Of a stretch of 64,000 bases of DNA, positions 923 to 60,548 are shown piece by piece. Each line of letters starts with the position of its first letter. Within the stretch, counting starts at the first letter, position 1. The position numbers and the translations under genes were made by a program. The stretch is taken from positions 30,628 to 94,627 of the forward strand of contig JAHJRV010000094.1 in the NCBI GenBank assembly GCA_018830725.1, written 5' to 3'. The notes under the pieces are model-generated. The model saw only the letters and a list, made by a program, of their open reading frames with translations, searched no databases and was not told the origin of the DNA. This DNA comes from Actinomycetota bacterium. Its GTDB lineage: Bacteria > Actinomycetota > Humimicrobiia > JAHJRV01.

Positions 923-2617
923 ATGCAAGAAGAAAAAAAGTTATTTACTAGAAAAGCTACAGGATTGGTACGAGAAATAGGAGTTGGAACTGCAGTTATT
1001 ATAGCTATTGCTAATGTTGTTGGACTTGGATGGCAGAAAAGAGTATTTCAAGCAACAGGTTGGACTCCAGTCGGTGAGAGTAAATTTCTTTTTGGAATTC
1101 ATCCAGTTGTAATGGCTTTTGCTCTTGCTGGATTAATTATTTTGGTATCATTGTACTGTTTTTCAATGTTATCAGCTGCTATGCCAAGATCAGGTGGTGG
1201 ATACATATTCATTTCCAGAATTCTAAATCCTGCTTTAGGATTTGTAGCCACATGGCTTCAGTTCTTTGCTGTTGCTGTTTCTTATGGATTAATAGCTGTT
1301 GCAGTAATGGAAGCAGTCTGGATCTTTGGTGGACTCGCTGGTATTTCACTTCCAGGTTGGCTTACTAGCCCTGTTGGTTTGTTTCTATCAGGTGTAGTAA
1401 TACTTATAATCTTTAGTGGTATTGCATTCTATGGAATAAAGATGACAGGAAAATTGCTTCAATGGTTATTCTGGATCCCAGCAGCAGTACTGGTAATTGT
1501 GTATATACTATTTATTGTAGCAAATCCTCAAACTATGGAGGCAGGTGTTCAAAATCTATTTGGTTCAAGTGCAGCTGAGTATACACAAGCAGCTATTGAC
1601 CAGGGAATGGCAGATGTAGCAGCAGGAAATACTTATTGGAAAGCGGTTGGAAGTGCAATGTTAGCGGCTTATTGGGCTTATATTGGTTATGCCGCTGCCT
1701 CATTTATAGCTGGTGAAGTAAAGGAAGCACACAAAGCTCTACCAAGAGCTATGTTCACATCTGGATTAGTAATCATTGGTATATACATGACCATTTCAAC
1801 TCTTATGGCAAGAGCTGCAATGATGGCTGGAAAGGTTGGAGATTTCTCATTGATGTCAGCTATTGGATTTCTTAATTTTGGAGGAGGAGATTTTGCAGCT
1901 GCTGGATTAGAAAAAATTGGCGGATGGATGCCAGTTGTTGCTGCAATTTCAGCTTCTGGATTTGGACTTCCAAGAGCATTCATGTTCCTATTGGTATTAT
2001 TTGCTGCTTTATGGGTTGCTAATGATATTCCACCATTTATCTTGACTTCTTCAAGAATGATATTTGCTATGGCTTTTGATAGAGTTCTACCTGATAAATT
2101 AGCAAAAGTTAATGAGAAATGGCATTCACCAGTAAACGCTATAATCTTTGTTTCACTTGTTTCTTTGTTTGGTTGTGCTGCTGAGGCTGACTTTTTTGGA
2201 GAAAAGGGGTTGTATTTAGGCAAATTCATTCACAGTATTATAAATCCAGGTGGAGCTATTGCAGCAACTGACTTATGGGATACAATATTCTTCTTAGTTG
2301 TGTGCATTGCAGCATTCATGTTCCCCATAAGAAAGCCCGATATATTTGAGAGGTCACCATTCAGAGCAAGTAAAACAGTTACACAAATAATTGCAGGACT
2401 GGCAATAATAGGAAATCTTATTGCGTTCTGGATATTCGCTACTGATCCTCATGGATGGAACCTTTTTGGAATTAAGAATCTGGCTTCTGCAATGCCATTC
2501 TTATTCTCTATTTTCCTAATTCTTTTGGGCTTGGGAATTTATCTTTACTACAGTAATAAAGCCAAGGCAACAGGTGTTGATCTAACCACAATATTTACAG
2601 AAATTCCTCCAGACTAA
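923..2617 (+). CDS. APC-superfamily amino acid/polyamine permease (polytopic membrane transporter)
   Basis: 564 aa with 12 or more hydrophobic helices and an APC-like N-terminal region. A strong RBS (aggagg) sits 8 nt upstream of the ATG. Confidence 0.7.
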   Translation: MQEEKKLFTRKATGLVREIGVGTAVIIAIANVVGLGWQKRVFQATGWTPVGESKFLFGIHPVVMAFALAGLIILVSLYCFSMLSAAMPRSGGGYIFISRILNPALGFVATWLQFFAVAVSYGLIAVAVMEAVWIFGGLAGISLPGWLTSPVGLFLSGVVILIIFSGIAFYGIKMTGKLLQWLFWIPAAVLVIVYILFIVANPQTMEAGVQNLFGSSAAEYTQAAIDQGMADVAAGNTYWKAVGSAMLAAYWAYIGYAAASFIAGEVKEAHKALPRAMFTSGLVIIGIYMTISTLMARAAMMAGKVGDFSLMSAIGFLNFGGGDFAAAGLEKIGGWMPVVAAISASGFGLPRAFMFLLVLFAALWVANDIPPFILTSSRMIFAMAFDRVLPDKLAKVNEKWHSPVNAIIFVSLVSLFGCAAEADFFGEKGLYLGKFIHSIINPGGAIAATDLWDTIFFLVVCIAAFMFPIRKPDIFERSPFRASKTVTQIIAGLAIIGNLIAFWIFATDPHGWNLFGIKNLASAMPFLFSIFLILLGLGIYLYYSNKAKATGVDLTTIFTEIPPD

Positions 2618-2709: not shown

Positions 2710-2802
2710 AAGAAGTCCCTTTGCGATAACTGGGGGATGAAAGGCATTATTAATAGAAGATAGATACTCACAGGAAGCCCTCTGCGTTAGCTGAGGGTAG
2801 TT
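2710..2802 (+). other. pair of paralogous about 31-nt hairpin elements (GGAAGyCCCTyTGCGnTArCTGrGGG) spaced about 62 nt apart
   Basis: Unit A is at 2710-2740 and unit B at 2772-2802. Each is a CCCT(C)/(G)AGGG stem with a TGCGNTARCTG loop. The units are GC-rich in an AT-rich intergenic region. Confidence 0.3.
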
Positions 2803-5681: not shown

Positions 5682-5878
5682 AACTCCTCCTATTTTAATT
5701 AATTATCGATAAAATAAATTATATATAATTTATTTTATTTTATTAATTAATTTATTAATTATATCAGTAAAATTTAAAGAATCAATATATTGTATTATCT
5801 TTTGTCACAATTACAAAATGTTAAAAATAATAAATTTAAATGAGATTGCACAGCCTGTTCCGAGCAAGCTCCTGGTTG

Positions 5879-6520
5879 TCATTCAGAAGAGCTTTCCTTT
5901 AATATCTTTTCTAAAGCTCTTACTTGCTTATCTGATAGAATTTTAGGTTCACCTACCTGAAGAGCTTTATGATAAATTTTTGCTGATTCTTCTACTAATA
6001 TCGCAATTAAAACTGCATTCGATAATGAAGAGCCTATTGTTAAAACTCCATGACTTTCTAAAAGAACTGCTGATCTATTAGAAAGTTTTTTAAGTGATTT
6101 TTTTGCCAATTCTTCTGAACCAGGAAGTGCAAAATCAACAACTGGAATATCTCCTCCTACTGAAAAGAATGTCTCAATATGTATAAGAGGAATACTCTTT
6201 TTAAGTACAGCAAAGCATGCAGCATATGGAGAATGCGTATGAGCAATTCCAAAGATATCCTCCCTATTTTTATAAATTTTTAAATGAATGGGAGTCTCAT
6301 ATGATGGTTTATTTTTACCCTCAATCTTATTTCCATTTATATCTAAAACTACAATATCCTGTAGATTTAAAAATTCCCTGAGTACTCCATGAGGAGTAAC
6401 AAAAATATATCCTGTTTCTCTATCCCTTAAACTAAAATTACCAGTTGTTGGGACAACCAAACCTAATTTCTCAGCTTTTTGAGCCCAGAAAATAACCTCA
6501 TTTTTATAATCTTCATACAT
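5879..6520 (-). CDS. class II aldolase/adducin-family protein (FucA/AraD/MtnB-like)
   Basis: Motifs GNFSLR, PSYETPIH and HTHSPY. Confidence 0.7.
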   Translation of the reverse strand: MYEDYKNEVIFWAQKAEKLGLVVPTTGNFSLRDRETGYIFVTPHGVLREFLNLQDIVVLDINGNKIEGKNKPSYETPIHLKIYKNREDIFGIAHTHSPYAACFAVLKKSIPLIHIETFFSVGGDIPVVDFALPGSEELAKKSLKKLSNRSAVLLESHGVLTIGSSLSNAVLIAILVEESAKIYHKALQVGEPKILSDKQVRALEKILKESSSE

Positions 6521-8554: not shown

Positions 8555-10422
8555 TCCTCTATGATTTTTCTCTTTGTATCCAAATCAATATTCCATAGAT
8601 AAAAATCTTGTTGGCCTACAGTCTTAATGGTACGATTTACCCAAGGTTTAGTTAAAGTTACTATCGTGTCAAAGTAAATTGGTACAATTGCAGTCTCAAC
8701 ATTATTTAGCTGATATTCTGCCTGTTTATAAAGTTCTTTTCTTTTCTTAGGATCTTGTTCTATACTAGCTTCCCTGGTTAATTTGTCAAATTCTAACTCT
8801 TTTACCTCAGTGCAAATTGGATCTGAACATCCTCTTCTTAACCTATTAGTTCCAGCTTCATTGTTAAATATTTCATGTACCCAGTTATTTTGATCAGGAT
8901 AATCAGCAAACCAAAATAGTCTCCAAATATGTGGCATATCTTCTAAGGGAGTATCCTTCTGTAGAGTTTTAAGATATTCCATCAATTCCTGAGTTTCTAT
9001 TTTAACATCAACATTTAATACTTCCTTCCACATAACTACTATCGCTTCAGCTATTTTTTTATGATGCTCACTTTCATTGTGCATTAGGATTACCTCAGGG
9101 AAACCTTCACCATCTAGATATCCAGCTTCAGCTAAATATGCTTTTGCTTTTTCTGGATCATATGTTATTCCCACATCTGGATCGCCAGCAACATTGCCAA
9201 AAATACCTGTAGGAGCAAAAGAGTTTGCTGGTATATGTTTACCGTCTAATACTGTATCTATAAGAGTTTGTCTGTCAATTGCTGCTGAAAATGCCTTTCT
9301 GATTAAATGATTATCAAATGGAGGTTTGTTATTAGTAAATCCATAGTAATAAGTATCAGGTACTGGGATAATAGTTAATTCCTCCTTTAGAACTTTATCT
9401 GATTTTATTTTATTTATTTCTGAAATAGGAACATTGCAGATGTCCAACTGATTATTCTTATACATGTCAAATGCTGAATATTCGTCCTCAACCATATATG
9501 CGATTATCTTTTCAATCTGTACTTTATCTGCATCAGGATAATATGGATTTTTTACTAATGTATAATGGTTACCATGAACCCATTCAGTCATTACATAAGG
9601 ACCATTTGAATATATATAACATGGCTCAATCCATTTCTCTTTGCGATATTCAATAACTTCTTGAGGTAATGGTTTACAAATTGACATACTTACAATTCCT
9701 GGGAAGTAAGGAGCTTTATGCTCCAAAGTGAATTTCACAGTATAATCATCAACTGCTTCAACACCAATGGTTTCTAAAAGTTCAGGTATTATTTCCTCTT
9801 CAGTAGTATTAACTGCTTCTCCATTTTTTAATGCATACAAAACATAAGCATAATCTGAACCAGTTACTGGGTTTAGAGTTCTTCTTACTCCATATACAAC
9901 ATCATTAGCTGTAACTGGAATTGGATTTCCATATTCATCCAAAACTTGCTCTACCTGATTTGTTGAACAATTATATCTAACCCATGTAATATCATCCCTT
10001 ATACTAAAGGTCCATGTAAAACCATCATTAGATAGCTCCCATTCAGTAGCTAATTCAGTAATTACATTACTATCCTCATCCAAACCTGTTAGACCCAGAA
10101 AAATACTCTCGACTAATTGTAATGAAGTGGTATCTGTTACAAATGCAGGATCTGCAGTTTCAGGCTCTTTACCCACATTAAGCATGAGAGTTACTGGTCC
10201 CTCTTCCAGTACAGGAGTTGTTTCTTCTACTTCCATTTCTTCTTCACTTGCTGTCATTTCCTCAATTTTAGTTTCTTCAACTAATGATTGTTTTAAGTAA
10301 GGACATCCTATAATTGAGATAGAGAGAAATATTATTAGAAAAATTATTGATGCGGTAAATATATTTTTTTTTAATAAATTCATAAATTTATTACTTTTTT
10401 TTACAATTAGAATATACTTCAC
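8551..10422 (-). CDS. ABC transporter substrate-binding lipoprotein, family 5 (OppA-like)
   Basis: 623 aa with lipobox IIGC and an acidic linker. It is a paralog of the neighbouring SBP. Confidence 0.7.
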   Translation of the reverse strand: MKYILIVKKSNKFMNLLKKNIFTASIIFLIIFLSISIIGCPYLKQSLVEETKIEEMTASEEEMEVEETTPVLEEGPVTLMLNVGKEPETADPAFVTDTTSLQLVESIFLGLTGLDEDSNVITELATEWELSNDGFTWTFSIRDDITWVRYNCSTNQVEQVLDEYGNPIPVTANDVVYGVRRTLNPVTGSDYAYVLYALKNGEAVNTTEEEIIPELLETIGVEAVDDYTVKFTLEHKAPYFPGIVSMSICKPLPQEVIEYRKEKWIEPCYIYSNGPYVMTEWVHGNHYTLVKNPYYPDADKVQIEKIIAYMVEDEYSAFDMYKNNQLDICNVPISEINKIKSDKVLKEELTIIPVPDTYYYGFTNNKPPFDNHLIRKAFSAAIDRQTLIDTVLDGKHIPANSFAPTGIFGNVAGDPDVGITYDPEKAKAYLAEAGYLDGEGFPEVILMHNESEHHKKIAEAIVVMWKEVLNVDVKIETQELMEYLKTLQKDTPLEDMPHIWRLFWFADYPDQNNWVHEIFNNEAGTNRLRRGCSDPICTEVKELEFDKLTREASIEQDPKKRKELYKQAEYQLNNVETAIVPIYFDTIVTLTKPWVNRTIKTVGQQDFYLWNIDLDTKRKIIEE

Positions 10423-17467: not shown

Positions 17468-19267
17468 TTATTCTTCTATCCAAACATTGTATATATCGAA
17501 GAACACTTTTGCTGCATAATCCCATAGACCTGATACTATTTTAACACCTTTAACTCTATCATTTACTGCAACAATTTCATTATCGTTATATAGGAAGATG
17601 GTTGGTAGTTCCTCTGCCAATATCTTTTCCAATTCGTAGTAGATTTCTTTTCTCTTTTCAGGATCCACATACTTTACACCTTCCTCCCACAACGCATCAG
17701 TTTCCTCATTTTTGTATCCGTAACCGTTATATCCATCTGGATGTTCACCTTTGCTGCTCCATATAACTGCTGCGTCAGGATCAATAGAAAGACTCCAACC
17801 CATTAGATATGTATCATAGTCATCTGGTTCGATTTTTCTATCGTCAGGAAATACATGGCCCAAAAGTGTTGGCCAATCCTGAAGTTCTCCTCTTACTTGA
17901 ATTCCAACAGCTGCTAAGTTATTCCAGATAAGAGGCATTGAAGCCATTCTCACCATGTTTCCAGTTGGGTAGAATAGATCAAATATCATTGGCTCTCCAT
18001 TATACTCTCTAATACCATCCTCATCTGTATCTAAATACCCTGCTTCATCTAAGAGTTCCTTAGCTTTTTCAGGATCATATGGGAACGGTTCTACTTCAGG
18101 ATTATGAGCCCACGATTCTGACCAGATTGGTGAAGCCTGAATAATTCCATGACCATCAAGGATATCATCTATTATGCTCTGTCTGTTAATTGCATAACAA
18201 ACTGCTTGTCTGAACTTCACATCATTAAATGGAGCTTTATACTGATTTAGACTAAAGTGCTGGAATCCACCTCCTGTAACTTCATACATTTGAGCAAATT
18301 CAACTTCAGCTATCATATCATATTCAGCAATAGGAACAGAAACTGCATCAACTTCACCAGCCAAGAAGGCAGCAAGACCTGTATCTTGATCCATTATCTT
18401 ACAAAAAATGGTATCTACAAAAGGACCTTTGCCTGTACCCTCTCCACTTGCACCCATACCATATTCATATCCCCACCAATCCTCATTTCTGGCAAGTTCT
18501 ACATATTGGTCTGTTTCATAAGCTACCCATTTGTAAGGACCAGTTCCTATTGGTACAAAATCAGCAGAAGTTGTGAAGTCTCTCTGAGCTGCTCCAGTAT
18601 TACCTTCATATATATGTTTTGGAATTACTGAAGCTCCACAGGACTCTATTGCAGGTGCAAAAACTTCCTCAAATGTGAACTTTATTGTAAGAGGATCAAT
18701 CACTTCTATACCCTCTATTTTATCTGCTGTACCTTCCTTATATGCTGGTGCTCCAAGAATAGGTTCTACAACTTCACCATATCTAACACCTAAATAATCA
18801 GGATTTCCCATCACATGGAATGTAAAGGATACATCTTCAGCAGTAAAGTCTTCACCATCATGCCACTTAATACCCTCTCTTATATGGAATGTAATTTCCT
18901 TCTGATCTTCTGAGATTTCCCAGCTTTCAGCTAACCATGGAATCAATTCTAGATTTTCATTATAAGTGGTTAATCCTTCATTTATTAAACTCAATGACAT
19001 TGATGTATAAGCATCTGTATAAAGAGTTGGATCAAATGGACCATCAGGAGAACTCCATTGTGCCATGATTAAACTTCCACCAGGTTTTGGTCCTACTACA
19101 ACCTCTTCAGGAGTAGTTTCCTCTTCAGGAGTAGTTTCCTCAACTTCCTCAGCAGGTGGGGCTGGAGGGCAACCAATAAGTGTGAGCGACAGTGATGTAA
19201 CAATTGTAAGAGCTACAACCGTCAAAATTATTTTTTTAAGAAAATTCATTAAAAACCTCCTTATCAA
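17468..19267 (-). CDS. oppA: oligopeptide-binding lipoprotein OppA (family 5 SBP)
   Basis: 599 aa with lipobox LIGC, a TTPEEETTPEE acidic tether and an SBP_bac_5-like body. It is the first gene of oppABCDF. Confidence 0.75.
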   Translation of the reverse strand: MIRRFLMNFLKKIILTVVALTIVTSLSLTLIGCPPAPPAEEVEETTPEEETTPEEVVVGPKPGGSLIMAQWSSPDGPFDPTLYTDAYTSMSLSLINEGLTTYNENLELIPWLAESWEISEDQKEITFHIREGIKWHDGEDFTAEDVSFTFHVMGNPDYLGVRYGEVVEPILGAPAYKEGTADKIEGIEVIDPLTIKFTFEEVFAPAIESCGASVIPKHIYEGNTGAAQRDFTTSADFVPIGTGPYKWVAYETDQYVELARNEDWWGYEYGMGASGEGTGKGPFVDTIFCKIMDQDTGLAAFLAGEVDAVSVPIAEYDMIAEVEFAQMYEVTGGGFQHFSLNQYKAPFNDVKFRQAVCYAINRQSIIDDILDGHGIIQASPIWSESWAHNPEVEPFPYDPEKAKELLDEAGYLDTDEDGIREYNGEPMIFDLFYPTGNMVRMASMPLIWNNLAAVGIQVRGELQDWPTLLGHVFPDDRKIEPDDYDTYLMGWSLSIDPDAAVIWSSKGEHPDGYNGYGYKNEETDALWEEGVKYVDPEKRKEIYYELEKILAEELPTIFLYNDNEIVAVNDRVKGVKIVSGLWDYAAKVFFDIYNVWIEE

Positions 19268-19597: not shown

Positions 19598-21262
19598 TTA
19601 GTCAAGTTTTTTCAGTCTTTCATAAACAACAGTGCCACCATTACCTGCTTCATAAACTGTTTTGAAATTTTCCTTATATTTTTCAATTATCGGGTACACA
19701 TATTTCATAAAGCGCTCATTTGTTTTATCCTGTATTATAAAATTAGATTTATTCAAATACTTCTTTTGTTTTTGTTCATCATCACTATACGGAAATGCTA
19801 TTGTTTCCCTCCCGGTTAAAATATAAACTAAGAAATTACTCCTGCTAAGTATTGAACTACCATCATAAGAATTTTCCTTTAACCAATACATTGCATCATA
19901 GAAATTCTCCCATTGTTTGCTATATATAAAAATTCCCTTATTTTTGTAATCAAGGCTTTTTTTTATCACAAAATATCCACTATATGTACTTCCAACTAAA
20001 AATATAATAAAAGTTAATATTAAAACTGTTGATGCAAATATTTTAATTATTTTTTTTGTTGAAATTTTTAGTATTATCTTTTTAAAAAACAAGACCCCGC
20101 TTGAAAAAAGAATGATTAAAATAGGAATTACGCAAATTGTAAGTCTTTCTGATTGCCATGGCCACATAAGAAGTCCTACAAAGTAGAAAATAAAATATAA
20201 TATATAAATATATTTTCTCCTTTTTAAAAAATATATAATTCCTAAAATGACAAATATTATTACTACTAAAATTGCAATAAAATGTAAATCTTTAATTTTT
20301 AAAATTTCAAAAATATTTGAATTTTTAATTACAAAAATATTTCTTCTTAAAATATTTGAAATATTGCCTTTTAAAATATCTTTTAAGCCATTTGTCAGCT
20401 GCGAAAAAACTGCTTTAAAATAATAATCAAAATTTGATTTTGCTCTTTCAAAAAATTTTATAAAATCTATATCCCCTTTAGAATAATCACTAAGATTGAC
20501 TTTAAAGAACTCACTTACATAGCTAACTTTATTTGAAATTACTACTCTTAAGTTCCACAAAATAACTGGTACTAACGTAAATACAAAATAAATTCCTGAT
20601 CTAATTTTGTTCTCACTTAAAAAGATTTGTATAAAGATTGCAAGGATGATGAAAATACCAATTGGTCTAATTAAAAAAGTAAAGATTGAAAAAAATATCA
20701 ATAATAAAAAATTTTTATCTCTTAAATACTCACCAATAATATCATTGATTTTATAGATGTTTTTTTTCTTCTTCTTATTGCTATCATTGTTTTTATTTTC
20801 ACTACTTCCCCTATCATCAATGTTGGTATTATAATTATTATCTTTATTAATTTTCTTTTCTGTTAGACTAAAGAAATATAAAGTGATAAGAATAAAAAGA
20901 TTATATACAGTCTCTGTCATTACCTTAGATGAGAAGCTTAAAAGTTCAGGATGAGTTATAAAAAAAATTGTTGCCAGCAATAAAGTTAATCTATCCAGAT
21001 CCTTTTTTGCTACAAGGTAGAAAAATAAAACAGAGAGAATAAAACATGTAAAAACAATTATTTTGGAAACTATTAAGATGTTTACTTCAATAAATTTAGA
21101 ACCTAAAATAAAATAAAAAAATGATAATATAAGTGGAAAACCTGGATATGCCTTGTAATCAGGAGAATTTTCTGGATAATTTATCAGTCTAAATCCAGAT
21201 CCTAAAGAAATGGATTTTCCAAGTATCATATATCTTGCATTATCACCAAAACAAGACAACAC
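19598..21262 (-). CDS. polytopic membrane protein, possibly a GT39/GT83-like glycosyltransferase. Start is uncertain: GTG at 21262 or the ATG at M12.
   Basis: More than 10 TM helices and an internal Lys/Asn-rich low-complexity insert. No firm motif. Confidence 0.35.
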   Translation of the reverse strand: MLSCFGDNARYMILGKSISLGSGFRLINYPENSPDYKAYPGFPLILSFFYFILGSKFIEVNILIVSKIIVFTCFILSVLFFYLVAKKDLDRLTLLLATIFFITHPELLSFSSKVMTETVYNLFILITLYFFSLTEKKINKDNNYNTNIDDRGSSENKNNDSNKKKKKNIYKINDIIGEYLRDKNFLLLIFFSIFTFLIRPIGIFIILAIFIQIFLSENKIRSGIYFVFTLVPVILWNLRVVISNKVSYVSEFFKVNLSDYSKGDIDFIKFFERAKSNFDYYFKAVFSQLTNGLKDILKGNISNILRRNIFVIKNSNIFEILKIKDLHFIAILVVIIFVILGIIYFLKRRKYIYILYFIFYFVGLLMWPWQSERLTICVIPILIILFSSGVLFFKKIILKISTKKIIKIFASTVLILTFIIFLVGSTYSGYFVIKKSLDYKNKGIFIYSKQWENFYDAMYWLKENSYDGSSILSRSNFLVYILTGRETIAFPYSDDEQKQKKYLNKSNFIIQDKTNERFMKYVYPIIEKYKENFKTVYEAGNGGTVVYERLKKLD

Positions 21263-21400: not shown

Positions 21401-22192
21401 TTATAATTTTTTTAATCTTTTTTTATAATTTATAATATCAATAAAGTCCTGTGCATTTAAACTTGCACCACCGACTAATACTCCATCTATCTCAGGTTGA
21501 ACCATAATCGGTACAATATTAAAAGGTTTTACGCTCCCACCGTATTGGATTCTTATTTTTTCGGAAATTATTGGAGAAAATAGTCTACTTATTCTTTGTC
21601 TTATGAATGAAATCATGAAATTAGCATCTTCAGGAGTTGCTGTTTTTCCTGTTCCAATTGCCCATATTGGCTCATACGCAATAACAATATTTTGAATATA
21701 ATCTTTATTTAAACCCTTCAAACAATTGTTCAATTGTTCCCTAACATATTGCTTCTGTCTTCCTAGTTCTCTAATTTTAAGAGGTTCTCCAACACAAAGG
21801 ATGGGGTTTATATTAACATCGAGTGCTTTTTTTAATTTTTTATTTATTAATTCATCAGTTTCATCAAAATATTGCCTTCTCTCAGAGTGACCAATTATGA
21901 CATATTCAACATTAAGTGCTTTCAACATAACTGGTGATATCTCACCTGTAAATGGACCTTCTGACATATAATGCATATTCTGAGCCCCTAATTTTATCTT
22001 CATCTTATCAGCTTCTATAACAATCTTAATGCTTCTTATTGCTGTAAAAGGAGGAATAACAACGACCTCAGCATCTAGATTTTTATCTATGCCATAATTT
22101 ATTTCCTGAACAAGTTTAACTCCCTTAAGATGAGTCTTAAACATCTTCCAATTTCCTGCTATTATTGGTCTTCTAATTTTTTCATTTACCAT
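21401..22192 (-). CDS. tpiA: triosephosphate isomerase
   Basis: Motifs IAGNWKM, IGHSERR, AYEPIWAIGTG and GGASL. Confidence 0.9.
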   Translation of the reverse strand: MVNEKIRRPIIAGNWKMFKTHLKGVKLVQEINYGIDKNLDAEVVVIPPFTAIRSIKIVIEADKMKIKLGAQNMHYMSEGPFTGEISPVMLKALNVEYVIIGHSERRQYFDETDELINKKLKKALDVNINPILCVGEPLKIRELGRQKQYVREQLNNCLKGLNKDYIQNIVIAYEPIWAIGTGKTATPEDANFMISFIRQRISRLFSPIISEKIRIQYGGSVKPFNIVPIMVQPEIDGVLVGGASLNAQDFIDIINYKKRLKKL

Positions 22193-22220
22193 TTATTTCC
22201 CTATTCTTAAAATTAACATT

Positions 22221-23405
22221 TTATTTGTTATTTAATGCTTCTACTGCTGGTAGTTTTACACCTTCAAGAAATTTTAATGATGCACCACCACCAGTTGTAA
22301 TGTAACTGATTTTATCTGCAACACTATACTTTTTTACTGCTGCTATTGTATCTCCTCCACCCACTATAGTTTTTGCTTTACTTTCTATAACTGCGTAGGC
22401 AATTTCCTTTGTTCCTTTTTCAAACGATTCCCACTCAAATACTCCCATCGGACCATTCCACAAAATGGTTTTTGCTTTCAATATCTCTTCTTTATATTTA
22501 TCGATTGTCCCTGGACCGATATCTAGTCCTAACCAATCCTTAGGAATCTCTTCTATATTTACTGTTTTAAAAATAGAATCATGTTTGAATTCTTTAGCCA
22601 CAACAACATCCTCTGGCAACATGAATTTCTTTCCCTTATCTTTAAATTCATCTAAAACTTGCTTACAGTATTCAAGCATCTCCTCTTCCAGTAAGGAATT
22701 CCCTATTTCAAAACCTATAGATTTTAAGAATGTATAACACATTCCACCGCCTGCAATCACAGTGTCAACAACATTTAAAAGATTCCTAACAACTCCAATT
22801 TTGTCTGAGATTTTACTGCCTCCTAAAATTGCAACAAAGGGATGTTTCGGTTTTTTAAGTAGAGAAGAAAGTGTTCTTAGTTCTTTTTCCAATAAAAGAC
22901 CCATCACAGATGGTATATATTTACAAATACCTACCATAGATGTGTGTTTTCTGTGTGAAGTGCCAAAAGCATCATTAACATATATATCTGCAAGTTCTGC
23001 AAGTTCCCTTGAGAAATTATCATCATTACTTTTTTCACGCGGGTCAAATCTTAGATTCTCTAAAAGTAAAATATCACCGCTTTTTAAATCTTTTACCTCA
23101 TTTTTAACCTTATCAGAAATAACATAATTCATCCTCTTTATTTCTTTATCAAGATGTTTACCTAAAGCTATTGCCACCGGATCCATTTTTAGTTTTTCTA
23201 CAAATTTACCTTTAGGTCTTCCAAGATGTGATGCAAGAATAATTTTCGCATTATTTTTTATTAGATAATCAATTGTTGGTAATGATGCTATTATTCTAGT
23301 CTCATCAGTAATATTGCTATTATCATCTAAAGGAACATTAAGATCTGCCCTAACAAAAACTCTCTTATTTTTAACATCAATATCCCTTATGGATTTCTTA
23401 TTCAT
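22221..23405 (-). CDS. pgk: phosphoglycerate kinase (start trimmed to MNKKSIRD with an aagga RBS)
   Basis: VFVRADLNVP, ASHLGRP and GGGASL motifs. The 13-codon upstream extension lacks an RBS. Confidence 0.9.
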   Translation of the reverse strand: MNKKSIRDIDVKNKRVFVRADLNVPLDDNSNITDETRIIASLPTIDYLIKNNAKIILASHLGRPKGKFVEKLKMDPVAIALGKHLDKEIKRMNYVISDKVKNEVKDLKSGDILLLENLRFDPREKSNDDNFSRELAELADIYVNDAFGTSHRKHTSMVGICKYIPSVMGLLLEKELRTLSSLLKKPKHPFVAILGGSKISDKIGVVRNLLNVVDTVIAGGGMCYTFLKSIGFEIGNSLLEEEMLEYCKQVLDEFKDKGKKFMLPEDVVVAKEFKHDSIFKTVNIEEIPKDWLGLDIGPGTIDKYKEEILKAKTILWNGPMGVFEWESFEKGTKEIAYAVIESKAKTIVGGGDTIAAVKKYSVADKISYITTGGGASLKFLEGVKLPAVEALNNK

Positions 23406-23495
23406 ACAACAATCCTTAAAATTTGTATTAAATTTATGCATCATATAAGAAATTAGGAGCTTTAAAAGCTCCCAATTTTTAAATATAATTTGGAA

Positions 23496-24500
23496 TTAGT
23501 AACCTTTTTTTGCAATGTATTTGATAAGGTCATTTACTCTCTTTGAGTAAGCCATTTCATTATCATACCAACCAAGAACTTTCACCATATTACCAATTAC
23601 CATAGTTGCTAATGAATCATAGACTGAAGAATACAGATTCCCTATTATATCGCATGAAACCAAGGGTTCATCACTATATTGCAAGATACCCTGAAGAGGT
23701 GGTTCTTCAGATGCTTTCTTCATGGCTTGATTTACTTCTTCAATTGTTACATCCCTTTCCAAAAAAGCAACAAAATCTACTATTGAACCATCATGAACTG
23801 GAACTCTCATAGCCATTCCATCCATTTTACCTTTAAGTTCTGGTATAACTAAAGTTGTTGCAATAGCTGCCCCTGTCGTTGTTGGAATTATATTCATTGC
23901 TGCTGATCTTGCTCTTCGTTTATCCTTATGTGGAGCATCTACCAAATTTTGGTCACTAGTGTATGCATGAATTGTTGTCATGAAACCTTTCTGAATCCCA
24001 AAATTCTCATGTAGAACTTTTGCTAATGGAGCAATACAATTTGTAGTGCAAGATGCACCAGATATAATATTATGATTTTCTGGGTTATACTTCTCATGAT
24101 TAACCCCCATTACTAAAGTAATATCAGGATTTGTTGCTGGTGCACTTATAATTACCTTTTTAGCACCTGCATCCAGATGTTTTTTTGCATCCTCTCTTTT
24201 TATAAAAAGTCCTGTTGATTCTACTACAATATCTACATCTAACTCATCCCATGGTAACTGAGCAGGATCTTTGACACAAAGAGCTTTTACCTTTCTATCA
24301 CAAATCGAAATTATATCATCATTAACTTCTACATTAGCTATTCTTCCATAGGTTGAATCATACTCTAACAGGAACGCTAAAACTTCAGGTGTTGTGATAT
24401 CATTAACAGCCACAAAGTCGATTTCCTTATCATCTATTCCAGCTTTAAAAACACATCTTCCAATTCTTCCAAATCCATTTATACCAACCCTTATTGCCAT
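23496..24500 (-). CDS. gap: glyceraldehyde-3-phosphate dehydrogenase (start at MAIRVGINGFGRIGR, RBS aaaggag)
   Basis: NAD-binding GINGFGRIGR and catalytic SCTTNC. The 43-codon N-terminal extension in the ORF track is non-coding upstream sequence. Confidence 0.9.
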   Translation of the reverse strand: MAIRVGINGFGRIGRCVFKAGIDDKEIDFVAVNDITTPEVLAFLLEYDSTYGRIANVEVNDDIISICDRKVKALCVKDPAQLPWDELDVDIVVESTGLFIKREDAKKHLDAGAKKVIISAPATNPDITLVMGVNHEKYNPENHNIISGASCTTNCIAPLAKVLHENFGIQKGFMTTIHAYTSDQNLVDAPHKDKRRARSAAMNIIPTTTGAAIATTLVIPELKGKMDGMAMRVPVHDGSIVDFVAFLERDVTIEEVNQAMKKASEEPPLQGILQYSDEPLVSCDIIGNLYSSVYDSLATMVIGNMVKVLGWYDNEMAYSKRVNDLIKYIAKKGY

Positions 24501-24671
24501 TTTATTTTCTCCTTTCTTTAAAAAATGTTTATAAAAAAATTTAAAAATTAATATTAAGGAAAATCTTATCATTTTACCAGATTCTTTAATATATTTAATG
24601 AGATTCTTCCCCTTTCCCTTCGCTACGCTCAAGGGTCAGGGTCAGAATGACAAATAAATAATAGATATCTT

Positions 24672-24751
24672 CTATAGGCTTTCTATTATTTCTATAGGTT
24701 TTCTATTATTTCTATAGGTTTTCTACTATTTTTATAGGCTTTCTACTATTT
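24672..24751. repeat. four tandem 20-nt units TCTATAGGyTTTCTAyTATT. The last unit overlaps the whiA stop codon.
   Basis: Read directly: 24672-24691, 24692-24711, 24712-24731 and 24732-24751, with 1-2 substitutions per unit. Confidence 0.85.
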
Positions 24752-25670
24752 TTTGTATCCTTCTTAATCTATTATTAACTGCAGATTTTGAAATTATTTT
24801 CGAACTCAGTTTCCCCAACTCTGATAAAGATGCTTGAGGATACTCAAGTCTAATATAAGAAATTTCCCTAAGAGCTTCTGGAAGCAAATCAAGACCTATA
24901 GAATTATCTATTTTTATAATATTATCAATCTGTTTATAAGATGCTTTTATAGTTTTATTAAGATTTGCTGCTTCAAAATTAACAATTCTTCTTATATAAC
25001 TTTTCGCTTCTTTTAATACTTTAATGCTTTCCAAATTTAAAACTGTTCCATGAGCTACAATTAATTTAAGAAAATTAAAAATATCCTCACTCTTTTTTAG
25101 ATAAACAACAAAAAATCCTCTTCTTTTGTATATCTTAGGATTAATATGAAATCCGTTAAGAATTTTTAATATATATTTTGCATCATCTTGGCTGTTAGTT
25201 AAGATCTCTAAATGATATCCACTTTCTGGTTTTGATATATAACCTCTACTATAAAAACAGCTTCTTAAAAAAGAAATCTGACAACATTTTTTGCTAATTA
25301 AATCTGAAGATATTTTATCTCTTACCTCAAATTTATCATCTAAATATTTTAACATCTTTAGCAACTTAGCTGTTTTTTTCTGAAAAGGTATCTCTATAAA
25401 ATATCTCTTTCTTTTGTTCTTATAACTTTTAAATTTTGTATAAGTATTTATTTCTTCTTTAAATAGCTTTTTAATTAAAGTGATTATTTTCCGAGCAACT
25501 GAAGCATTTTCTGTTCTTATCTTCACACCAAAATTCTGTTTTTCTTTTTTTATAAGCCCGGACATTCTTATCACAACATATAGTTCTGCTTTTTGACAGC
25601 AAATCTTTTTTGGTATTTCCCGAGCTAATTCATCCTTTACGCAGGATGAGAAACTTTTAATTTTCCCCAT
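24732..25670 (-). CDS. whiA: sporulation/cell-division regulator WhiA (YvcL)
   Basis: 312 aa with LAGLIDADG-like N-terminal domains and a C-terminal HTH. It sits in the conserved position after rapZ. Confidence 0.75.
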   Translation of the reverse strand: MGKIKSFSSCVKDELAREIPKKICCQKAELYVVIRMSGLIKKEKQNFGVKIRTENASVARKIITLIKKLFKEEINTYTKFKSYKNKRKRYFIEIPFQKKTAKLLKMLKYLDDKFEVRDKISSDLISKKCCQISFLRSCFYSRGYISKPESGYHLEILTNSQDDAKYILKILNGFHINPKIYKRRGFFVVYLKKSEDIFNFLKLIVAHGTVLNLESIKVLKEAKSYIRRIVNFEAANLNKTIKASYKQIDNIIKIDNSIGLDLLPEALREISYIRLEYPQASLSELGKLSSKIISKSAVNNRLRRIQKIVESL

Positions 25671-26539
25671 TATTGTAAATCCCTATGATTAATTATAACC
25701 TCATAACCTTGCTCTTTCAAAAAATTAAAAATTTCTTTAGCAATCACTGCAGATCTGTGTCTTCCCCCTGTACAACCAATTGCAATTTTTAAATAATTTT
25801 TTCCCTCTAAAATATATTTGGGTATGGTATAAGATAGTAATTTTTTAAAAATATTTAGAAACTTAGTGGTCCCTTTTTTACTTATCACAAAATCATAAAC
25901 TTCCTTATCTAACCCACTTTTTAACCTTAAAGATTCAACATAATTCGGATTAGGTAAAAAACGAACATCCATCACTAAATCGGCATCTTGCGGAATACCT
26001 AAACTATACCCAAAAGATACTACCTGTATTTGTATTCTTTTGCTTTCAAGACCTAAAATTATTGTGTTATTTATCCTATTTTTAAGCTCCATTGGAGTGA
26101 GATGAGATGTATCAATTACAATATCCGCTGTTTCTCTTAAAAATTTTATTCTTCCTTTTTCAATACGAATTCCTTCTAAAAAATCTGCTTTTTTTGCTAA
26201 CGGGTGTGTTCTTCTCGTCTCTTTAAATCTCTTAACTAATGTTTCTTCATCTGCTGATAAAAAAAGAATTTGATAATCTATATTTTTTTTATTTAAGTCT
26301 TTTAATACATTAGGTAGTTGATCAAAAAAATCCCTACTACGAACATCTATAACAAGTGCTAATTTATCAATTTTACTTCCTGGAAGTGAACATATATTTA
26401 TCAAATCTAAAATTAAGGATGATGGCAGATTATCTATACAAAAATAGCCTGCATCTTCAAAGCATCTCATAGCTAAGGTTCTACCTGCGCCAGAGAGTCC
26501 TGTTATTATTATTGTTTTTAAACCTTCACTTTTTTCCAT
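25670..26539 (-). CDS. rapZ: RNase adapter/nucleotide-binding protein RapZ (YvcJ)
   Basis: P-loop GLSGAGRT and C-terminal GCTGGRHRS motif. It overlaps whiA by 1 nt. Confidence 0.8.
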   Translation of the reverse strand: MEKSEGLKTIIITGLSGAGRTLAMRCFEDAGYFCIDNLPSSLILDLINICSLPGSKIDKLALVIDVRSRDFFDQLPNVLKDLNKKNIDYQILFLSADEETLVKRFKETRRTHPLAKKADFLEGIRIEKGRIKFLRETADIVIDTSHLTPMELKNRINNTIILGLESKRIQIQVVSFGYSLGIPQDADLVMDVRFLPNPNYVESLRLKSGLDKEVYDFVISKKGTTKFLNIFKKLLSYTIPKYILEGKNYLKIAIGCTGGRHRSAVIAKEIFNFLKEQGYEVIINHRDLQ

Positions 26540-26556: not shown

Positions 26557-26967
26557 TTATTTTTGTTTATCTTTTAATAATTTATATAAAACAGAATTTA
26601 TAATACTTATTGCCAGTGCTCCAAGAAAATATCCCCAGAAGCCAAATACAGAAAATCCCTCAACGAAGTGATCCACGATCCAGAGCATTGCAGCATTTAT
26701 TATTAAAGAAAAAAGACCTAATGTTAAAATATTTATAGGAAGTGTTAAAACCTTAACTATAGGTCTGATTATTAAATTTACTAATGCCAAAACAATTGCT
26801 GTGAAAAGGGCTGATAATAGTTTAGCATTACCTTCACCCTCAAGATGAATCATATTATCAGGAAATATATAAGTAATTATAATAATCGCGAGAGTTAAAG
26901 TTATTATCCTGATTAATATATTCTTCATAAGTAATCCTCCTCCCAATAACAAGTTCACTTTTTTCAA
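26557..26967 (-). CDS. small membrane protein, phage-holin-4-like (DUF360) family
   Basis: 136 aa with four TM helices. Family assignment comes from overall pattern only. Confidence 0.4.
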   Translation of the reverse strand: MKKVNLLLGGGLLMKNILIRIITLTLAIIIITYIFPDNMIHLEGEGNAKLLSALFTAIVLALVNLIIRPIVKVLTLPINILTLGLFSLIINAAMLWIVDHFVEGFSVFGFWGYFLGALAISIINSVLYKLLKDKQK

Positions 26968-27017: not shown

Positions 27018-28925
27018 TTAAAAGCGGTGAAAATGTCTGTATATTCTTTGGACGACTTTAGAAGGTATTCCTTTAATATCATATAGTTCTTGAAGTGTCG
27101 CTTTTGCAACATATTCTGCTGAACTAAAATGTTTAATCAATTTTGCTTTTCTTTTTGGACCAACTCCATAAATTTTATCAAGAATTGATGTTATCATATC
27201 TTTGTTTCTAAGATTTCTGTGATAAGAAATTGCAAAGCGATGAGTTTCATCTCTAATATTTTTTAAAAGCAAAAGCGCTGATGAATTCTCTTGAAGTATA
27301 AGAGGATATTTCTTGTTTAATAAATGTATTTTATCAGGTTTTTTAGATAGTCCAATAACAAAGATATTTTCTAAACCTAATTCTTTTAAAACTCTTTTTG
27401 TAATTTGCAGTTGACCCTTTCCACCATCTATTATCACAAGATCAGGGATAAAATCAAATGCATTAAATTCTTTATATTCCTTTTTATAAACTTTATTATC
27501 TTTTTTATATTTATAGGTTTTTTCATCTATCTTATATGGATATACTAACTTTTTAAATCTTCTCTCAATTACTTCACTTATCATATGAAGATCGTCTTTA
27601 ACAGATATATTTTTTATTTTAAATCTCCTATATTGTGATTTCTTTGGAATACCATTTAAAAATACAACCATTGAGCCAACAGAATGAGAACCTGCTAATG
27701 TTGATATATCATAACATTCAATCCTATAAGGAATTGAACTAAGATTTAATCTATTTTTTAATGAAACAAGTGCATCTTTCTCCCTCATTTTTTTTAGCTT
27801 TTCCTTGTTCAGAAATTGCTTAATTTCAATTTCAGCATTTTTTTCTGCTAACTCTACTAATCTTCTTTTCTCCCCTCTTCTCGGAATCTTTATGTCAATA
27901 TATGTTTCCTTTTTCATGCTCAACCAATTTTTTATGATCTCCATTTCATAAATATTTGTTGATAAAATAATCTCCTTAGGATATCTAAAAGCTGAATTAT
28001 AATACTGTTTGATAAAGAAAGTAAGAAGCTCGCTTTTATCAAACTCTGATGTCTTTTCTAAAATAAAGCAATCTTTACCTAATAAAAATCCCCCTCTTAT
28101 TGTAAAAAGTTCAACACATGCTATGTCTTCGTTTAATACAACAGCTAATACATCAATATCCAGTCTTTTTATTGTTGCAACTTTTTGTTTCTGAGTAAGC
28201 TCATTTATTGCAATAAATTGATCTCTATATCTTGCAGCATCCTCAAATCTTTTTTCACTTGATGCTAACTTCATAGATTTCTCTAAACCTTGCTTGATTT
28301 CTTTTCTTCTTCCATTAAGAAATTGAATGATTATACTTATTATTTCTTTATATTCTGTTTTTTTTACTTTCCCAATACACGGAGCTAAGCATCTATTTAT
28401 ATAATAATTCAGACATGGTGAACTAGTCTTTTTTCCTGGCTTTGATCCTTTACAACCTCTAATTTTAAATTTTTTATGAATCATATCTAAGATTTTTCTG
28501 ACATTTTGAGGTCTTGTATAGGGACCAAAATAGATATAGTTTGGATTGGATGTTTTTCGTGTAAAAAATACCCGAGGATAATCTTCTGAAATAGAGATAG
28601 CAATATAGGGATATCTCTTATCATCTTTTAAATTCACATTATATTTTGGTCTGTGTTCCTTTATCAGTGTACTTTCAAGTATTAGTGCTTCAACTTCATT
28701 ATCAGTAACGATAAAATCTAATTTGTCTGTATGAGATAGCATATCAGTTATCTTTGTAGGTAGTTTTTGATACTTTTGAAAATAGCTTTTAATCCGTTTC
28801 TTTAAGGACTTAGCTTTACCAATATATAAGACTTCCTCTAAAGAATCATAGAATATATAAACACCTGGTTTATCAGGTAAATAATTTAGACTTTCTTTTA
28901 TCTTTGTTGGAGCTTTTCTAAACAT
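27018..28925 (-). CDS. uvrC: excinuclease ABC subunit C
   Basis: GIY-YIG N-terminus (GVYIFYD...YIGKA), UvrBC motif and C-terminal HhH. Confidence 0.9.
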
Positions 28926-31768: not shown

Positions 31769-31824
31769 TAGATTTGTGGCATGGTTTCGAAGACATTTAG
31801 TCAAGAAACTATGCCCAAATCTTT
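31769..31824. repeat. short (arms-only) copy of the MITE-like inverted-repeat element
   Basis: tagatttgtggcatggtttcgaagacattt / caagaaactatgcccaaatc. This is identical to the arms of the 43689-43803 copy but lacks the GC core. Confidence 0.7.
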
Positions 31825-31850
31825 CAAAGGTTATTTAATTCATTTTTTTA

Positions 31851-31878
31851 ATGAGATTGCGCAGCCTGTTCCGAGCAT
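31851..31878. repeat. 26-28-nt motif AATGAGATTGCrCAGCCTGTTCCGAGCA (second copy at 5838-5865)
   Basis: Both copies lie immediately 3' of the stop of a minus-strand gene (uvrB here, the aldolase at 5879). Confidence 0.6.
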
Positions 31879-31910
31879 TAGCGAGGAAGCCCATCCCTCG
31901 CAAGGACAAG

Positions 31911-33890
31911 TTAATATTTTGTTTGTTTTTTTAATTCTTTTATCTGGTCTCTTAAAATAGCTGCATATTCAAAGTTTAACTCCTCAGCAGCAAGTCTCAT
32001 CTCTTCTTCAAGTCCCAATATTATTTTTGGTATTTCATCAGGTAATATTTTTCCTGGTTTCATTATTTTATCTTTTATCTTTATTTTTTCAGCTACTTTA
32101 GTTGCCATCAAAATATCAGATATCTTCTTGTGAATTGTTTGAGGTTCTATATTATTCTCTTCATTAAATACTAATTGAATATCTCTTCTTCTGTTAGTTT
32201 CATCTATTGCTCTCTTCATTGACCTTGTTATATTATCAGCATACATTATAACTTTACCTCTGATATTTCTTGATGCTCTACCAATAGTTTGGATAAGTGA
32301 TGTTTCTGATCTTAAAAATCCCTCTTTATCAGCGTCCAATATAGCAACAAGAGAAACCTCCGGAAGATCCAAGCCTTCTCTAAGAAGATTTATTCCAACT
32401 AATACATCGAAGTCTCCTTTTCTCAACTCTCTTATAATTTTTACCCTCTCTAAAGTACCTATTTCTGAATGAAGATATCTTGATTTAATACTCATATCAA
32501 GAAAATAATCAGTCAAATTTTCAGCCATTCTTTTTGTTAAAGTTGTAATTAAAACCCTCTCATTTTGTGTGGTTCTTTTCTTAATTTCCGTCATCAAATT
32601 ATCAATTTGACCTGTTGTTTTTCTAACTTCAACTTCCGGGTCAACAAGTCCTGTAGGTCTAATTATCTGCTCAACAACCTGACTACTATTTTCAATTTCA
32701 AAATCCCTAGGGGTTGCTGAAACAAATATTACCTGGTTTATTGCATTTAAAAATTCTTTCATCCTTAAAGGACGATTATCAAGAGCTGATGGTAGTCTAA
32801 ATCCATATTCAATAAGTGTTTCTTTCCGAGACCTATCCCCATGATACATCCCATTTATCTGAGGAACTGCTATATGGGACTCATCAATAAATGTTATAAA
32901 ATCATCCGGAAAATAATTTAGTAGTGTAGATGGAGTAGCTCCTGGTTCTCTTCCTGAAAAATATCTTGAGTAATTCTCAATTCCTTTACAGTATCCGATT
33001 TCTTTTAACATCTCCAAATCATATTTTGTTCTCATCCTTAATCTCTGAACTTCAAGCAATTTATCCTGAGATTTTAATTCCTTTAATCTATCATCTAAAT
33101 CCTTCTCAATTTCGAATAAAATCTCTTCCATTCTTTTTGGTTCAATAACAAAATGAGTTGCTGGTGAAATCATAATAATTGCTATTTTTTCAATTATTTC
33201 GCCAGTTAAATAATTAAATTTACATATTTCCTTTATATCATCACCAAATAATTCAATTCTAATAGCATAATCATTATAGGGTGGGAATATATCTACTATA
33301 TCTCCTTTTACTCTGAATGTCCCAGGACTAAAGTCAATATCGTTTCTTTGATACTTTATTTTGACAAGTTTTAATAATATTTCATCCCTTTCATATTTTT
33401 CACCCTTAGATAAAATAAGAGTTTTCTCCTTATATAGAGATGGTGAACCTAAGTTAAATATACATGAAACACTTGCTACAATAATTACATCTCTTCTTGT
33501 AAGTAATGCATTTGTTGATGAAAGTCTAAGTCTTTCCAATTGCTCATTTATAGATGCGTCTTTCTCAATGTAGGTATCTGTAGTTGGCACATAAGCCTCA
33601 GGTTGATAATAATCATAGTAACTAACAAAATAATGAACTGAATTTTTGGGGAAAAATTCTTTAAATTCATTACAGAGTTGAGCAGCCAATGTTTTATTAG
33701 GAGACATTACCAAGACAGGTCTATTTACACTGTTTATTATCTGAGCCATTGTATAAGTCTTTCCAGACCCGGTAACTCCAAGTAAGGTTTGAAATCTATC
33801 ACCTTTATATAAGCCTTCAACAAGCTTATTTATTGCTGTAGGTTGATCTCCTTGAGGCTTGTAATTTGATATTAATTCAAAGTCTGGCAT
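31911..33890 (-). CDS. uvrB: excinuclease ABC subunit B
   Basis: [12 protein letters not shown] helicase motifs and a C-terminal UVR domain. Confidence 0.95.
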
Positions 33891-42530: not shown

Positions 42531-42682
42531 CTTTTAGAAAATAAATTAAAAGTCTCACTTTTTAATTTAATGAAGTTATAAGTTATTAAAAATTAAATTA
42601 CATTTAAGAATTAAATTAGTACAATATTGTCTTAATAATAACACAATAAAAAAAGCATTTATTAGAATTTTTAAATATACAC

Positions 42683-42725
42683 CCTCCCCCTACCCCCTCC
42701 CTTAAAGGGAGGGGAATTGAGTAAA
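42683..42725. repeat. core-only GC-rich hairpin module (CCCTACCCCCTCCC-TTAAA-GGGAGGGG) related to the MITE cores
   Basis: The CCCCTCCC/GGGAGGGG stem and CCCTACCCCCTCCC motif are shared with the 43689-43803 and 54868-54984 copies. Confidence 0.6.
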
Positions 42726-43688: not shown

Positions 43689-43803
43689 AGATTTGTGGCA
43701 TGGTTTCGAAGACATTTTACCCTCTCCCTACCCCCTCCCCCCTCTCCTTATTCCTCTCCCACCAGGGGAGAGGATAAACAATCAAGAAACTATGCCCAAA
43801 TCT
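43689..43803. repeat. full-length MITE-like element: imperfect about 18-nt terminal inverted repeats flanking a GC-rich core with the CCTCTCCC-ACCA-GGGGAGAGG hairpin
   Basis: Arms tttgtggcatggtttcgaag / caagaaactatgcccaaa are reverse complements. Core: ccctctccctaccccctcccccctctccttattcctctcccaccaggggagagg. Confidence 0.75.
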
Positions 43804-54984: not shown

Positions 54985-55084
54985 GCTATTTATTACGAAA
55001 ATTAAATTTAAAAAATCAATTATTTAATAAATTCTGATAAAATTTTGTTTTAAAATTTTTTAAGTATTTTTATAATAGATTATT

Positions 55085-60475: not shown

Positions 60476-60548
60476 AAGGAATAGAAAATAAAAGATGGGT
60501 TCAGGTCTTGTAATATAACAAAATTTATCTAATTTTGAAGTAATAAAA

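Follow-up and report, generated by a model that had tools for sequence, protein, structure and literature searches.

A tandem array derived from the whiA terminus beside a probable REP-like hairpin in the whiA-gap spacer of an uncultured Actinomycetota lineage

The spacer between whiA and gap on contig JAHJRV010000094.1 (assembly GCA_018830725.1, Actinomycetota) holds a 20-nt tandem array next to a GC-rich palindromic segment. This combination raises the question of whether the spacer is a regulatory device in front of the glycolytic genes or a site of repeat turnover. The 64,000-nt stretch that was analysed (positions 30,628 to 94,627 of the contig) is called the window. A first-pass annotation of the window interpreted the array as a slippage-prone, variable-number repeat and the GC-rich segment as an operator-like site. 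The likely explanation is an insertion of the repetitive extragenic palindrome (REP) type combined with a minisatellite formed by slippage and template switching, with slow drift of copy number and exchange of the hairpin core. Both components are of known kinds, namely REP-like palindromes and intergenic variable-number tandem repeats (VNTRs). The hairpin element is of a widespread, selfish sort, and the spacer is better described as ordinary genome clutter than as the binding site of a regulator or a sign of a new regulatory mechanism.

Four consecutive 20-nt units lie at 24672-24751, as the first-pass annotation had described. Tandem Repeats Finder reports a repeat at 24670-24751 with a period of 20, 4.1 copies, 93% matches and a score of 129, which is the top score in the window. 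These high-identity, head-to-tail units are those of a minisatellite. The 19-mer unit pattern (three or fewer mismatches) finds abutting minus-strand copies at 24673-24691, 24693-24711, 24713-24731 and 24733-24751. Elsewhere in the window, it has a single match with three mismatches, at 8443 (shuffle expectation 0.19). The unit at 24751..24732 reads AA ATA GTA GAA AGC CTA TAA, which is two bases of a lysine codon followed by I, V, E, S, L and the stop codon of whiA. The array is an amplified copy of the whiA terminus, and this part of the earlier description holds. The stop and the final codons do fall inside the unit, but five codons rather than six are complete, and the unit phase given at first was one base off. 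Slippage never disrupts whiA because unit 1 carries the stop codon. The 20-mer was also considered as part of a mobile element, and it has no other occurrence in the window. A TRAP-like reading of the UAG triplets was rejected on spacing.

The gap between the direct array and the GC element is filled by a diverged, inverted copy of the unit that is 79% complementary over 19 nt to 24693-24711. Its first 10 nt (24656-24665) are a perfect inverted repeat of 24682-24691, and the two make an AT-rich hairpin with a 16-nt loop. The whiA terminus is therefore the source of the whole stretch from the whiA stop to the GC element, in three direct copies and one inverted copy.

The GC element is one long, interrupted hairpin. 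Its coding strand reads TGTC ATTCT GA CCC TGA CCCTT GAGCGTAGCG AAGGG AAA GGG GA AGAAT CTCA. The tag TGTC (24652..24649) is unpaired and directly precedes the stem, the outer stem ATTCT (24648..24644) pairs with AGAAT (24607..24603), and the tail CTCA occupies 24602..24599. The inner stems are CCC/GGG and CCCTT/AAGGG, and GAGCGTAGCG is the apical part. On the forward strand, CCCTT lies at 24616-24620, AAGGG at 24631-24635 and GGGTCAGGGTCAGAATGACA at 24633-24652. The predicted fold has an energy of -24.5 kcal/mol as RNA (z = -3.49) and -9.8 kcal/mol as DNA (z = -2.69). The hairpin is sense-oriented and sits 80 nt past the whiA stop. The GC-rich segment lies where it was first placed and is rare, as few non-coding 30-nt windows reach 60% G+C; the whole window has a G+C content of 30.4%. 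Rfam covariance models give zero matches on the spacer or on the elements of relatives at E values up to 10 or up to 1. Full-text literature searches with strings of the element and its spurious peptide translations return unrelated primers only.

Relatives show how this spacer varies. The comparison set consists of 27 clade contigs (Candidatus Humimicrobiia, Actinomycetota) plus outgroups, taken from genome and metagenome collections and from exact-protein look-ups, and unit counts include the unit inside whiA. Four units are present in the window and in contig L001, and three in eight contigs from at least six samples (L012, L013 and L022-L027). Fourteen contigs have two units (L002, L004, L006, L007, L015-L021 and L028-L030). 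L014 has five, one of which is 19 nt long, and L003 and L008 have one unit and no GC element. Copy number thus differs among related genomes (1, 2, 3, 4 or 5 units) as in a VNTR, and the variability predicted from the window alone is confirmed. The same cannot be said of fast slipped-strand switching. Contigs that encode one and the same WhiA share their copy number whatever the sample. For example, WhiA P0017 occurs with three units in all six contigs from six samples, and WhiA P0004 or P0003 with two units in all contigs from more than seven samples. The array therefore differs between lineages but is not fast-switching, and the within-lineage variation of a phase-variable contingency locus is not seen in these contigs.

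The single-unit alleles of L003 and L008 have a spacer of 94 nt and also lack the inverted unit. They read ...GAAAGCCTATA[G/A]AATATATTAAAGAATCT[G/A]GTAAAATGATAAG..., in which the whiA stop joins directly onto the sequence that, in the window, flanks the element on its right. The gap-proximal part of their spacer is otherwise nearly identical to that of the window. In the window, the spacer is 231 nt long and the array ends 172 nt before gap, which agrees with the roughly 170 nt estimated at first. In remoter relatives, whose whiA identity is 76-78%, the spacers, of 69 nt (L009) and 120 nt, are short and unrelated.

Filled alleles carry different versions of the element at the same site. The L022 lineage has TGTC ATTCT GAAG GAGCGATAGCGAC TGA AGAAT CTTA, with GAAGGAGCGATAGCGACTGA between the stems. 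L002 and L006 have TGTC ATTGC GAG GAGCGTAAGCGAC GAA GCAAT CTCA, with GAGGAGCGTAAGCGACGAA between the stems in L002. The L004 lineage resembles L002 and L006 but has GAGCGAAGCGAC and an additional copy of the 5' half in front. The ends are constant across these versions and the outer stem covaries, with ATTGC/GCAAT in some and ATTCT/AGAAT in others (GC/GC versus CT/AG). The core is replaced by different sequences even in relatives with whiA about 97% identical. Many short-read contigs stop inside the element, 87-108 nt past the whiA stop, as is expected for a multi-copy repeat.

The four core variants at the site are GCGTAGC, GCGATAGC, GCGTAAGC and GCGAAGC. All four sequences fit the consensus GCGNAGC/GCGNNAGC of DNA mini-hairpins. 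Such mini-hairpins are reported to be extraordinarily stable, pausing of the polymerase has been observed at them in sequencing reactions, and they occur at single-strand initiation sites (review PMC13037366). The motif GCGN(1-2)AGC is not enriched window-wide, with 6 found and 7.6 expected.

Unrelated genes elsewhere in the window are followed by two elements with the same ends, at 5835-5885 and 31850-31912 (minus strand). These two copies belong to a longer subfamily (...GCTCGGAACAGGCTGYGCAATCTCATT), and both start at or no more than 2 bases from the stop codon of an upstream co-oriented open reading frame (ORF; 5879..6520 and 31911..33890). The 31850 copy abuts an empty frame of a second repeat family, described below. 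Spacers of relatives hold further copies. The pgk-tpi spacer of L003 (5535-5695) contains a REP and an AT-rich stretch of about 95 nt, whereas the same spacer is about 28 nt long in the window (22193-22220) and in other relatives. The flank of the window element at 5847 matches about the first 35 nt behind the L003 copy, which suggests that some REPs travel with a 3' extension. An inverted doublet is present in the uvrC spacer of L004 (2570-2735) and L006 (1570-1735). It is flanked by a 26-nt direct repeat, AATATTGAATTTGTCATTGCGAGGAG, the second copy of which supplies the ribosome-binding site. In the window, the same spacer has the ribosome-binding region of the holin-like gene (about 26929-26950, minus strand), GTTATTGGGAGGAGG, which resembles a degenerate REP 5' half. 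In L002, a reverse-oriented copy lies in frame inside a membrane-protein ORF (8790-8830; ...EILRYAQDDNDK...). This copy corresponds to a loop region that is hypervariable and of low complexity in the window ortholog (about 20740-20880, ORF 19598..21262).

A near-identical stretch of 32-38 nt also occurs on plasmids from Alphaproteobacteria, Gammaproteobacteria and cyanobacteria. Plasmid matches to the canonical 39-mer come from Methylosinus (32/32), Methylocystis, Novosphingobium, Halomonas, Legionella and several Nostocales (Calothrix/Trichormus), and three unannotated "Bacteriophage sp." records of human faecal origin match it as well. All three plasmids inspected carry the inverted doublet.

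These features place the element close to the CGTC-tagged REPs of Di Nocera, De Gregorio and Rocco (2013, BMC Genomics 14:522; PMC3733652), a superfamily that includes Neisseria dRS3 and Rickettsia RPE-4/RPE-6. These REPs have a CGTC tag that is often TGTC, a stem that starts A-T and a short tail. They lie mostly downstream of ORFs between co-directional genes and sometimes inside ORFs, frequently form dimers, occur in several phyla and have no dedicated transposase. The listed tag variants are TGTC and CCTC, and some families have atypical loops. The unpaired TGTC tag of the window copy agrees with this description, as does the A-T start of its stem (ATTCT/AGAAT; ATTGC/GCAAT and ATCCT/AGGAT in relatives). 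The CGTC consensus tail is CCA, whereas the tail is CTCA here, CTTA or CCCA in relatives and CCAG in Methylosinus. Three same-ended elements lie in the 64 kb, relatives have further occupied spacers, and L004/L006 have a dimer. Copies lie just behind co-oriented ORFs, occasionally within an ORF, form inverted dimers in relatives and span several phyla, and no transposase lies near the element. The published families have stems of 8-9 bp and loops of 4-5 nt. The window copy differs from them in its interrupted stem of 13 bp, or 5+4+5 bp, in three segments and its 10-nt apical region, and the canonical relatives differ because their outer stem has just 5 bp and encloses a GAGCGAAGCGA-type core. 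Actinomycetota is not among the five phyla listed for CGTC repeats, and the supplements of the paper contain no consensus strings. The element is REP-like and probably a divergent member of the CGTC/TGTC superfamily, placed there by described features and not by family consensus sequences.

Other repeats offer partial parallels. Like the REP, BIME and REPIN sequences of E. coli and Pseudomonas, the elements are short, dispersed, GC-rich palindromes that lie between co-directional genes and form doublets. Those REPs are mobilised by REP-associated tyrosine transposases (RAYTs), and their proposed roles are protection of mRNA 3' ends and attenuation of transcription. Unlike them, the present element has no GTAG tag and a low copy density in the window. 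No RAYT gene was seen at the locus, to which the search was confined. The array can be compared with the mycobacterial interspersed repetitive unit (MIRU) loci, which were reportedly described by Supply and colleagues in 1997 and 2000 as intergenic minisatellites or VNTRs. Both are tandem units in a spacer of a conserved actinobacterial gene cluster, with a unit that overlaps the stop codon of the upstream gene and a copy number that is lineage-specific and stable inside lineages. The array differs in its 20-nt unit (46-101 nt in MIRU), in being unique to one locus rather than a dispersed family, and in its visible origin from the adjacent gene end, with an inverted unit and a REP beside it.

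The events that would produce these alleles can be ordered as follows. A REP-like hairpin would have inserted into a permissive whiA-gap spacer, which grew from about 94 to 231 nt in the process as a whole. The last 20 nt of whiA would then have been copied beside the element, three more times in direct orientation and once, in diverged form, in inverted orientation. This copying was probably due to replication slippage with template switching, helped by microhomology and possibly by stalling at the hairpin. The empty allele of L003/L008 has AAAATA at the start of the unit and again directly after the whiA stop, a microhomology that could have seeded the first duplication. Unit number would afterwards have drifted slowly between lineages, from 1 to 5, and the hairpin core would have been exchanged by gene conversion from family members or by re-insertion. 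We infer both the causal link between hairpin and duplication and the direction of these events from the alleles described above. The 7-mers AAGATAT (24671..24665) and AATATAT (24595..24589) bracket the stretch formed by the inverted unit and the REP, and AATATAT occurs once in the empty allele. A target-site duplication, as would accompany the terminal inverted repeats of a MITE, is nevertheless judged weak because the left 7-mer is 12 nt off the element and AT-rich DNA is expected to contain such matches.

The spacer insert most likely has no selected function. A selected regulatory role is unlikely because the insert is missing altogether from close relatives whose gap-proximal spacer is unchanged. 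As a by-product, and by analogy with other REPs, the hairpin may shield the uvrC-rapZ-whiA transcript at its 3' end or dampen read-through towards gap.

The neighbour-joining whiA tree has three subclades. Subclade A contains the window, L022/L012, L002 and L003. Subclade B joins L014 with L008 at a bootstrap of 100, and subclade C contains L004, L007 and L028. Every empty allele is sister to filled ones. The inverted unit is common to subclades A and B, which would favour a single origin with losses.

Several observations weigh against the proposed insertion and duplication. On the whiA tree, one gain with two clean losses and three independent gains are equally parsimonious, and the history is ambiguous in this respect. 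Unit 2 of L004 matches the window-type whiA end at 17 of 20 positions and the whiA end of L004 itself at 15 of 20, so that recombination between lineages, or an array that overwrites the whiA end, is possible. The proposed causal link is drawn from the co-occurrence of element and array (2-5 units where the element is present, one where it is absent) in just a few independent lineages. With standard DNA parameters, the canonical relatives of the element fold no better than shuffled sequence, so that the case for the structure is built on outer-stem covariation and the mini-hairpin consensus and not on folding energy. A strict regular-expression census of the window (GTC, 5-nt stem, GC-rich core, complementary stem) gives 4 matches with 3.1 expected, and only one element of exactly this type is present in 64 kb; the family is too heterogeneous for this definition. 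Finally, the hairpin lacks the U-tract of an intrinsic terminator and is followed by CTCATTAAATATATT.

Among the alternatives, a selected RNA function survives best, although it is unlikely. Here, the GC hairpin and the AT hairpin of unit 4 and the inverted unit would be a selected 3'-end stabiliser, or a terminator or attenuator without a U-tract, that serves uvrC-rapZ-whiA and insulates gap. The sense orientation of the hairpin 80 nt behind the whiA stop and its RNA folding energy are consistent with such a role. The two other family members in the window, which begin at or within two bases of the stops of co-oriented genes, point the same way, as does the account in PMC3733652 that REPs lie mostly downstream of ORFs and are thought to be RNA elements. 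However, L003 and L008 manage without the element, and the canonical variants at the same site fold weakly. The core GCGNNAGC fits DNA mini-hairpins in all variants but RNA GNRA loops only in some. Besides the missing U-tract, a promoter and terminator scan of the whiA-gap spacer calls zero terminators, and its promoter-like matches are at chance level.

Two further possibilities concern the array as a structural module. The gap-proximal spacer holds the ribosome-binding site AAAGGAGAAAA and a candidate extended -10-like sequence, TGGTAAAAT (24579..24571), and its AT-rich proximal stretch is promoter-like. Each unit has two A-tracts 10 nt apart, which gives eight A-tracts in the array at a spacing of 9-10.5 nt. 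Of some 12,800 windows of 100 nt in the 64 kb, scored by resultant vector, the array shows the strongest helical phasing of A-tracts. In a distinctly improbable scenario, a TGTC-REP with a GCGNAGC-type tip would be a local replication obstacle that actively duplicates whatever lies on its tag side, in direct and inverted orientation (in this case the whiA terminus), and the phased array would be a copy-number-tunable bend before the gap promoter. If true, this would also explain the partial REP 5'-half copies and other AT-rich tandem units in relatives, and REPs would be generators of lineage-specific VNTRs and of variation in promoter architecture. Selection of the array as a curved-DNA module, with a bend that grows with copy number and tunes the gap promoter or recruits a nucleoid protein, is very unlikely. 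The eight phased tracts do lie upstream of the gap promoter region, but phasing follows automatically from a 20-nt unit with two A-tracts. At least 170 nt and the REP separate the array from the gap ATG, one-unit relatives retain the same promoter-proximal spacer, and the spacer of the more distant relative L009 is just 69 nt.

The operator first proposed for the GC segment is harder still to sustain. It would bind a CggR/SorC-like regulator or WhiA to control the glycolytic operon, with repeat number setting the spacing. In the Bacillus subtilis gapA operon, the CggR operator is located upstream of gap and includes a short direct repeat. The segment in the window shares this position, and its GGGTCA direct repeat is visible as first reported. 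Yet GGGTCAGGGTCA and TGACA are 5' arm segments and the TGTC tag (in complement) of one hairpin, and since the repeat is two hairpin stem segments, the operator reading is unsupported. No second GGGTCAGGGTCAG exists in the 64-kb window, where other GGGTCA-N-GGGTCA sites had been sought. Unlike the CggR operator, the segment is not conserved in close relatives, being absent in L003/L008 and exchanged at its core in others. No cggR or SorC gene is adjacent to gap, and the gene upstream of gap is whiA. The same element ends also occur behind unrelated genes and on the plasmids of other phyla. An operator is thus highly improbable. A WhiA-box reading (GACAC) was rejected because the motif is absent. 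An artefact of assembly or sequencing of the metagenome-assembled genome deserves almost no credence: many short-read contigs break in the region, but the breaks fall in the GC element and not in the array, the 80-nt array is shorter than a read, each copy-number state recurs in several samples, and the independently assembled contig L001 (SRR6514730) has the same four units, identical in sequence, which excludes an assembly origin of the array.

With insertion and slippage as the preferred explanation, the regulatory-looking feature becomes a hot spot of repeat turnover in the conserved actinobacterial cluster uvrC-rapZ-whiA-gap-pgk-tpi. TGTC/CGTC-type palindromic elements would extend to an AT-rich, uncultured class of Actinomycetota. 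A divergence of about 3% in the flanking gene spans presence and absence of the insert, core exchange with compensating stem changes, and a 1-to-5-copy minisatellite. The element explains the breaks of short-read assemblies at this spacer, and the array could mark lineages of these organisms in metagenomes. Mildly new are the host lineage, the origin of the array from the stop-codon region with an inverted copy, and core exchange at an orthologous site with compensatory stem changes.

The genes around the spacer are in the order uvrC, a small holin-like gene, rapZ, whiA, gap, pgk and tpi, all on the minus strand (Table 1), and gene annotation confirms the position of the array between whiA and gap-pgk-tpi. 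Actinobacteria usually show the arrangement uvrC-rapZ-whiA-gap-pgk-tpi; in the window, yvcK does not stand between rapZ and whiA. The window WhiA is identical to MBU2598420.1 from an Actinomycetota metagenome-assembled genome. The genomes most closely related to the window are metagenome-assembled and carry the label Candidatus Humimicrobiia or Actinomycetes. The pgk and tpi genes (21401-23444) are separate ORFs 28 nt apart, and among NCBIfam models they match the bifunctional PGK/TIM model PRK13962 best, with a score under the cut-off of that model.

Table 1. Coordinates of the genes and repeat features in the window.
Feature	Position	Strand	Remarks
uvrC	28925..27018	-	
rapZ	26539..25670	-	
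whiA	24732..25670	-	312 aa; TIGR00647, E = 2.8e-78; last 20 nt are array unit 1
Array unit 1	24732..24751	-	AAATAGTAGAAAGCCTATAA; codes (K)IVESL and the TAA stop of whiA
Array unit 2	24712..24731	-	AAATAGTAGAAAACCTATAG
Array unit 3	24692..24711	-	AAATAATAGAAAACCTATAG
Array unit 4	24672..24691	-	AAATAATAGAAAGCCTATAG
Diverged inverted unit copy	24656..24674		
TGTC-tagged REP-like hairpin element (probable)	24599..24652	-	TGTC tag and CTCA tail
GCGTAGC hairpin tip	24622..24628	-	fits GCGNAGC mini-hairpin DNA consensus (PMC13037366)
Gap-proximal spacer	24501..24598	-	kept in relatives with and without the insertion
gap	23496..24500	-	type I glyceraldehyde-3-phosphate dehydrogenase; ATG at 24500
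pgk	23444..22221	-	
tpi	22192..21401	-	
Second repeat family, copy	43690-43800	+	
Second repeat family, copy	54870-54985	-	
Second repeat family, copy	60540-60650	-	
Second repeat family, fragment	42678-42717		

The second repeat family consists of GC-rich CCTCTCCC...GGGAGAGG hairpins nested in an AT-richer palindromic frame, GATTTGTGGCATGGTTTCGAAGACATTT ... AAGAAACTATGCCCAAATC. Its orientation flips with the gene strand. At 31770-31835, the two frame halves meet directly, with no GC centre between them, as in an unoccupied target.

Additional repeats occur in the window and in relatives. Downstream of ORF 923..2617, at 2767-2800 (plus strand), there is a GC-rich hairpin, CCCTC-TGCGTTAGCT-GAGGG, whose tip GCGTTAGC fits the mini-hairpin consensus. 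Downstream of pgk in L009 and L011 (L009 6290-6560), AT-rich near-tandem units of about 20-24 nt (AATACTACTTAAATAAA...) precede a cluster of GC-rich REP-like modules, one of which, CCCTTGAACGAAGTGAAGGG, is a near copy of CCCTTGAGCGTAGCGAAGGG in the window. Besides the whiA array, this is a second example in which AT-rich tandem units lie on the tag side of an element of this sort. ORF 17468..19267 contains a perfect 18-nt tandem repeat at 19102-19141 (2.2 copies, 100% identity), which keeps the reading frame because its unit length is divisible by 3.

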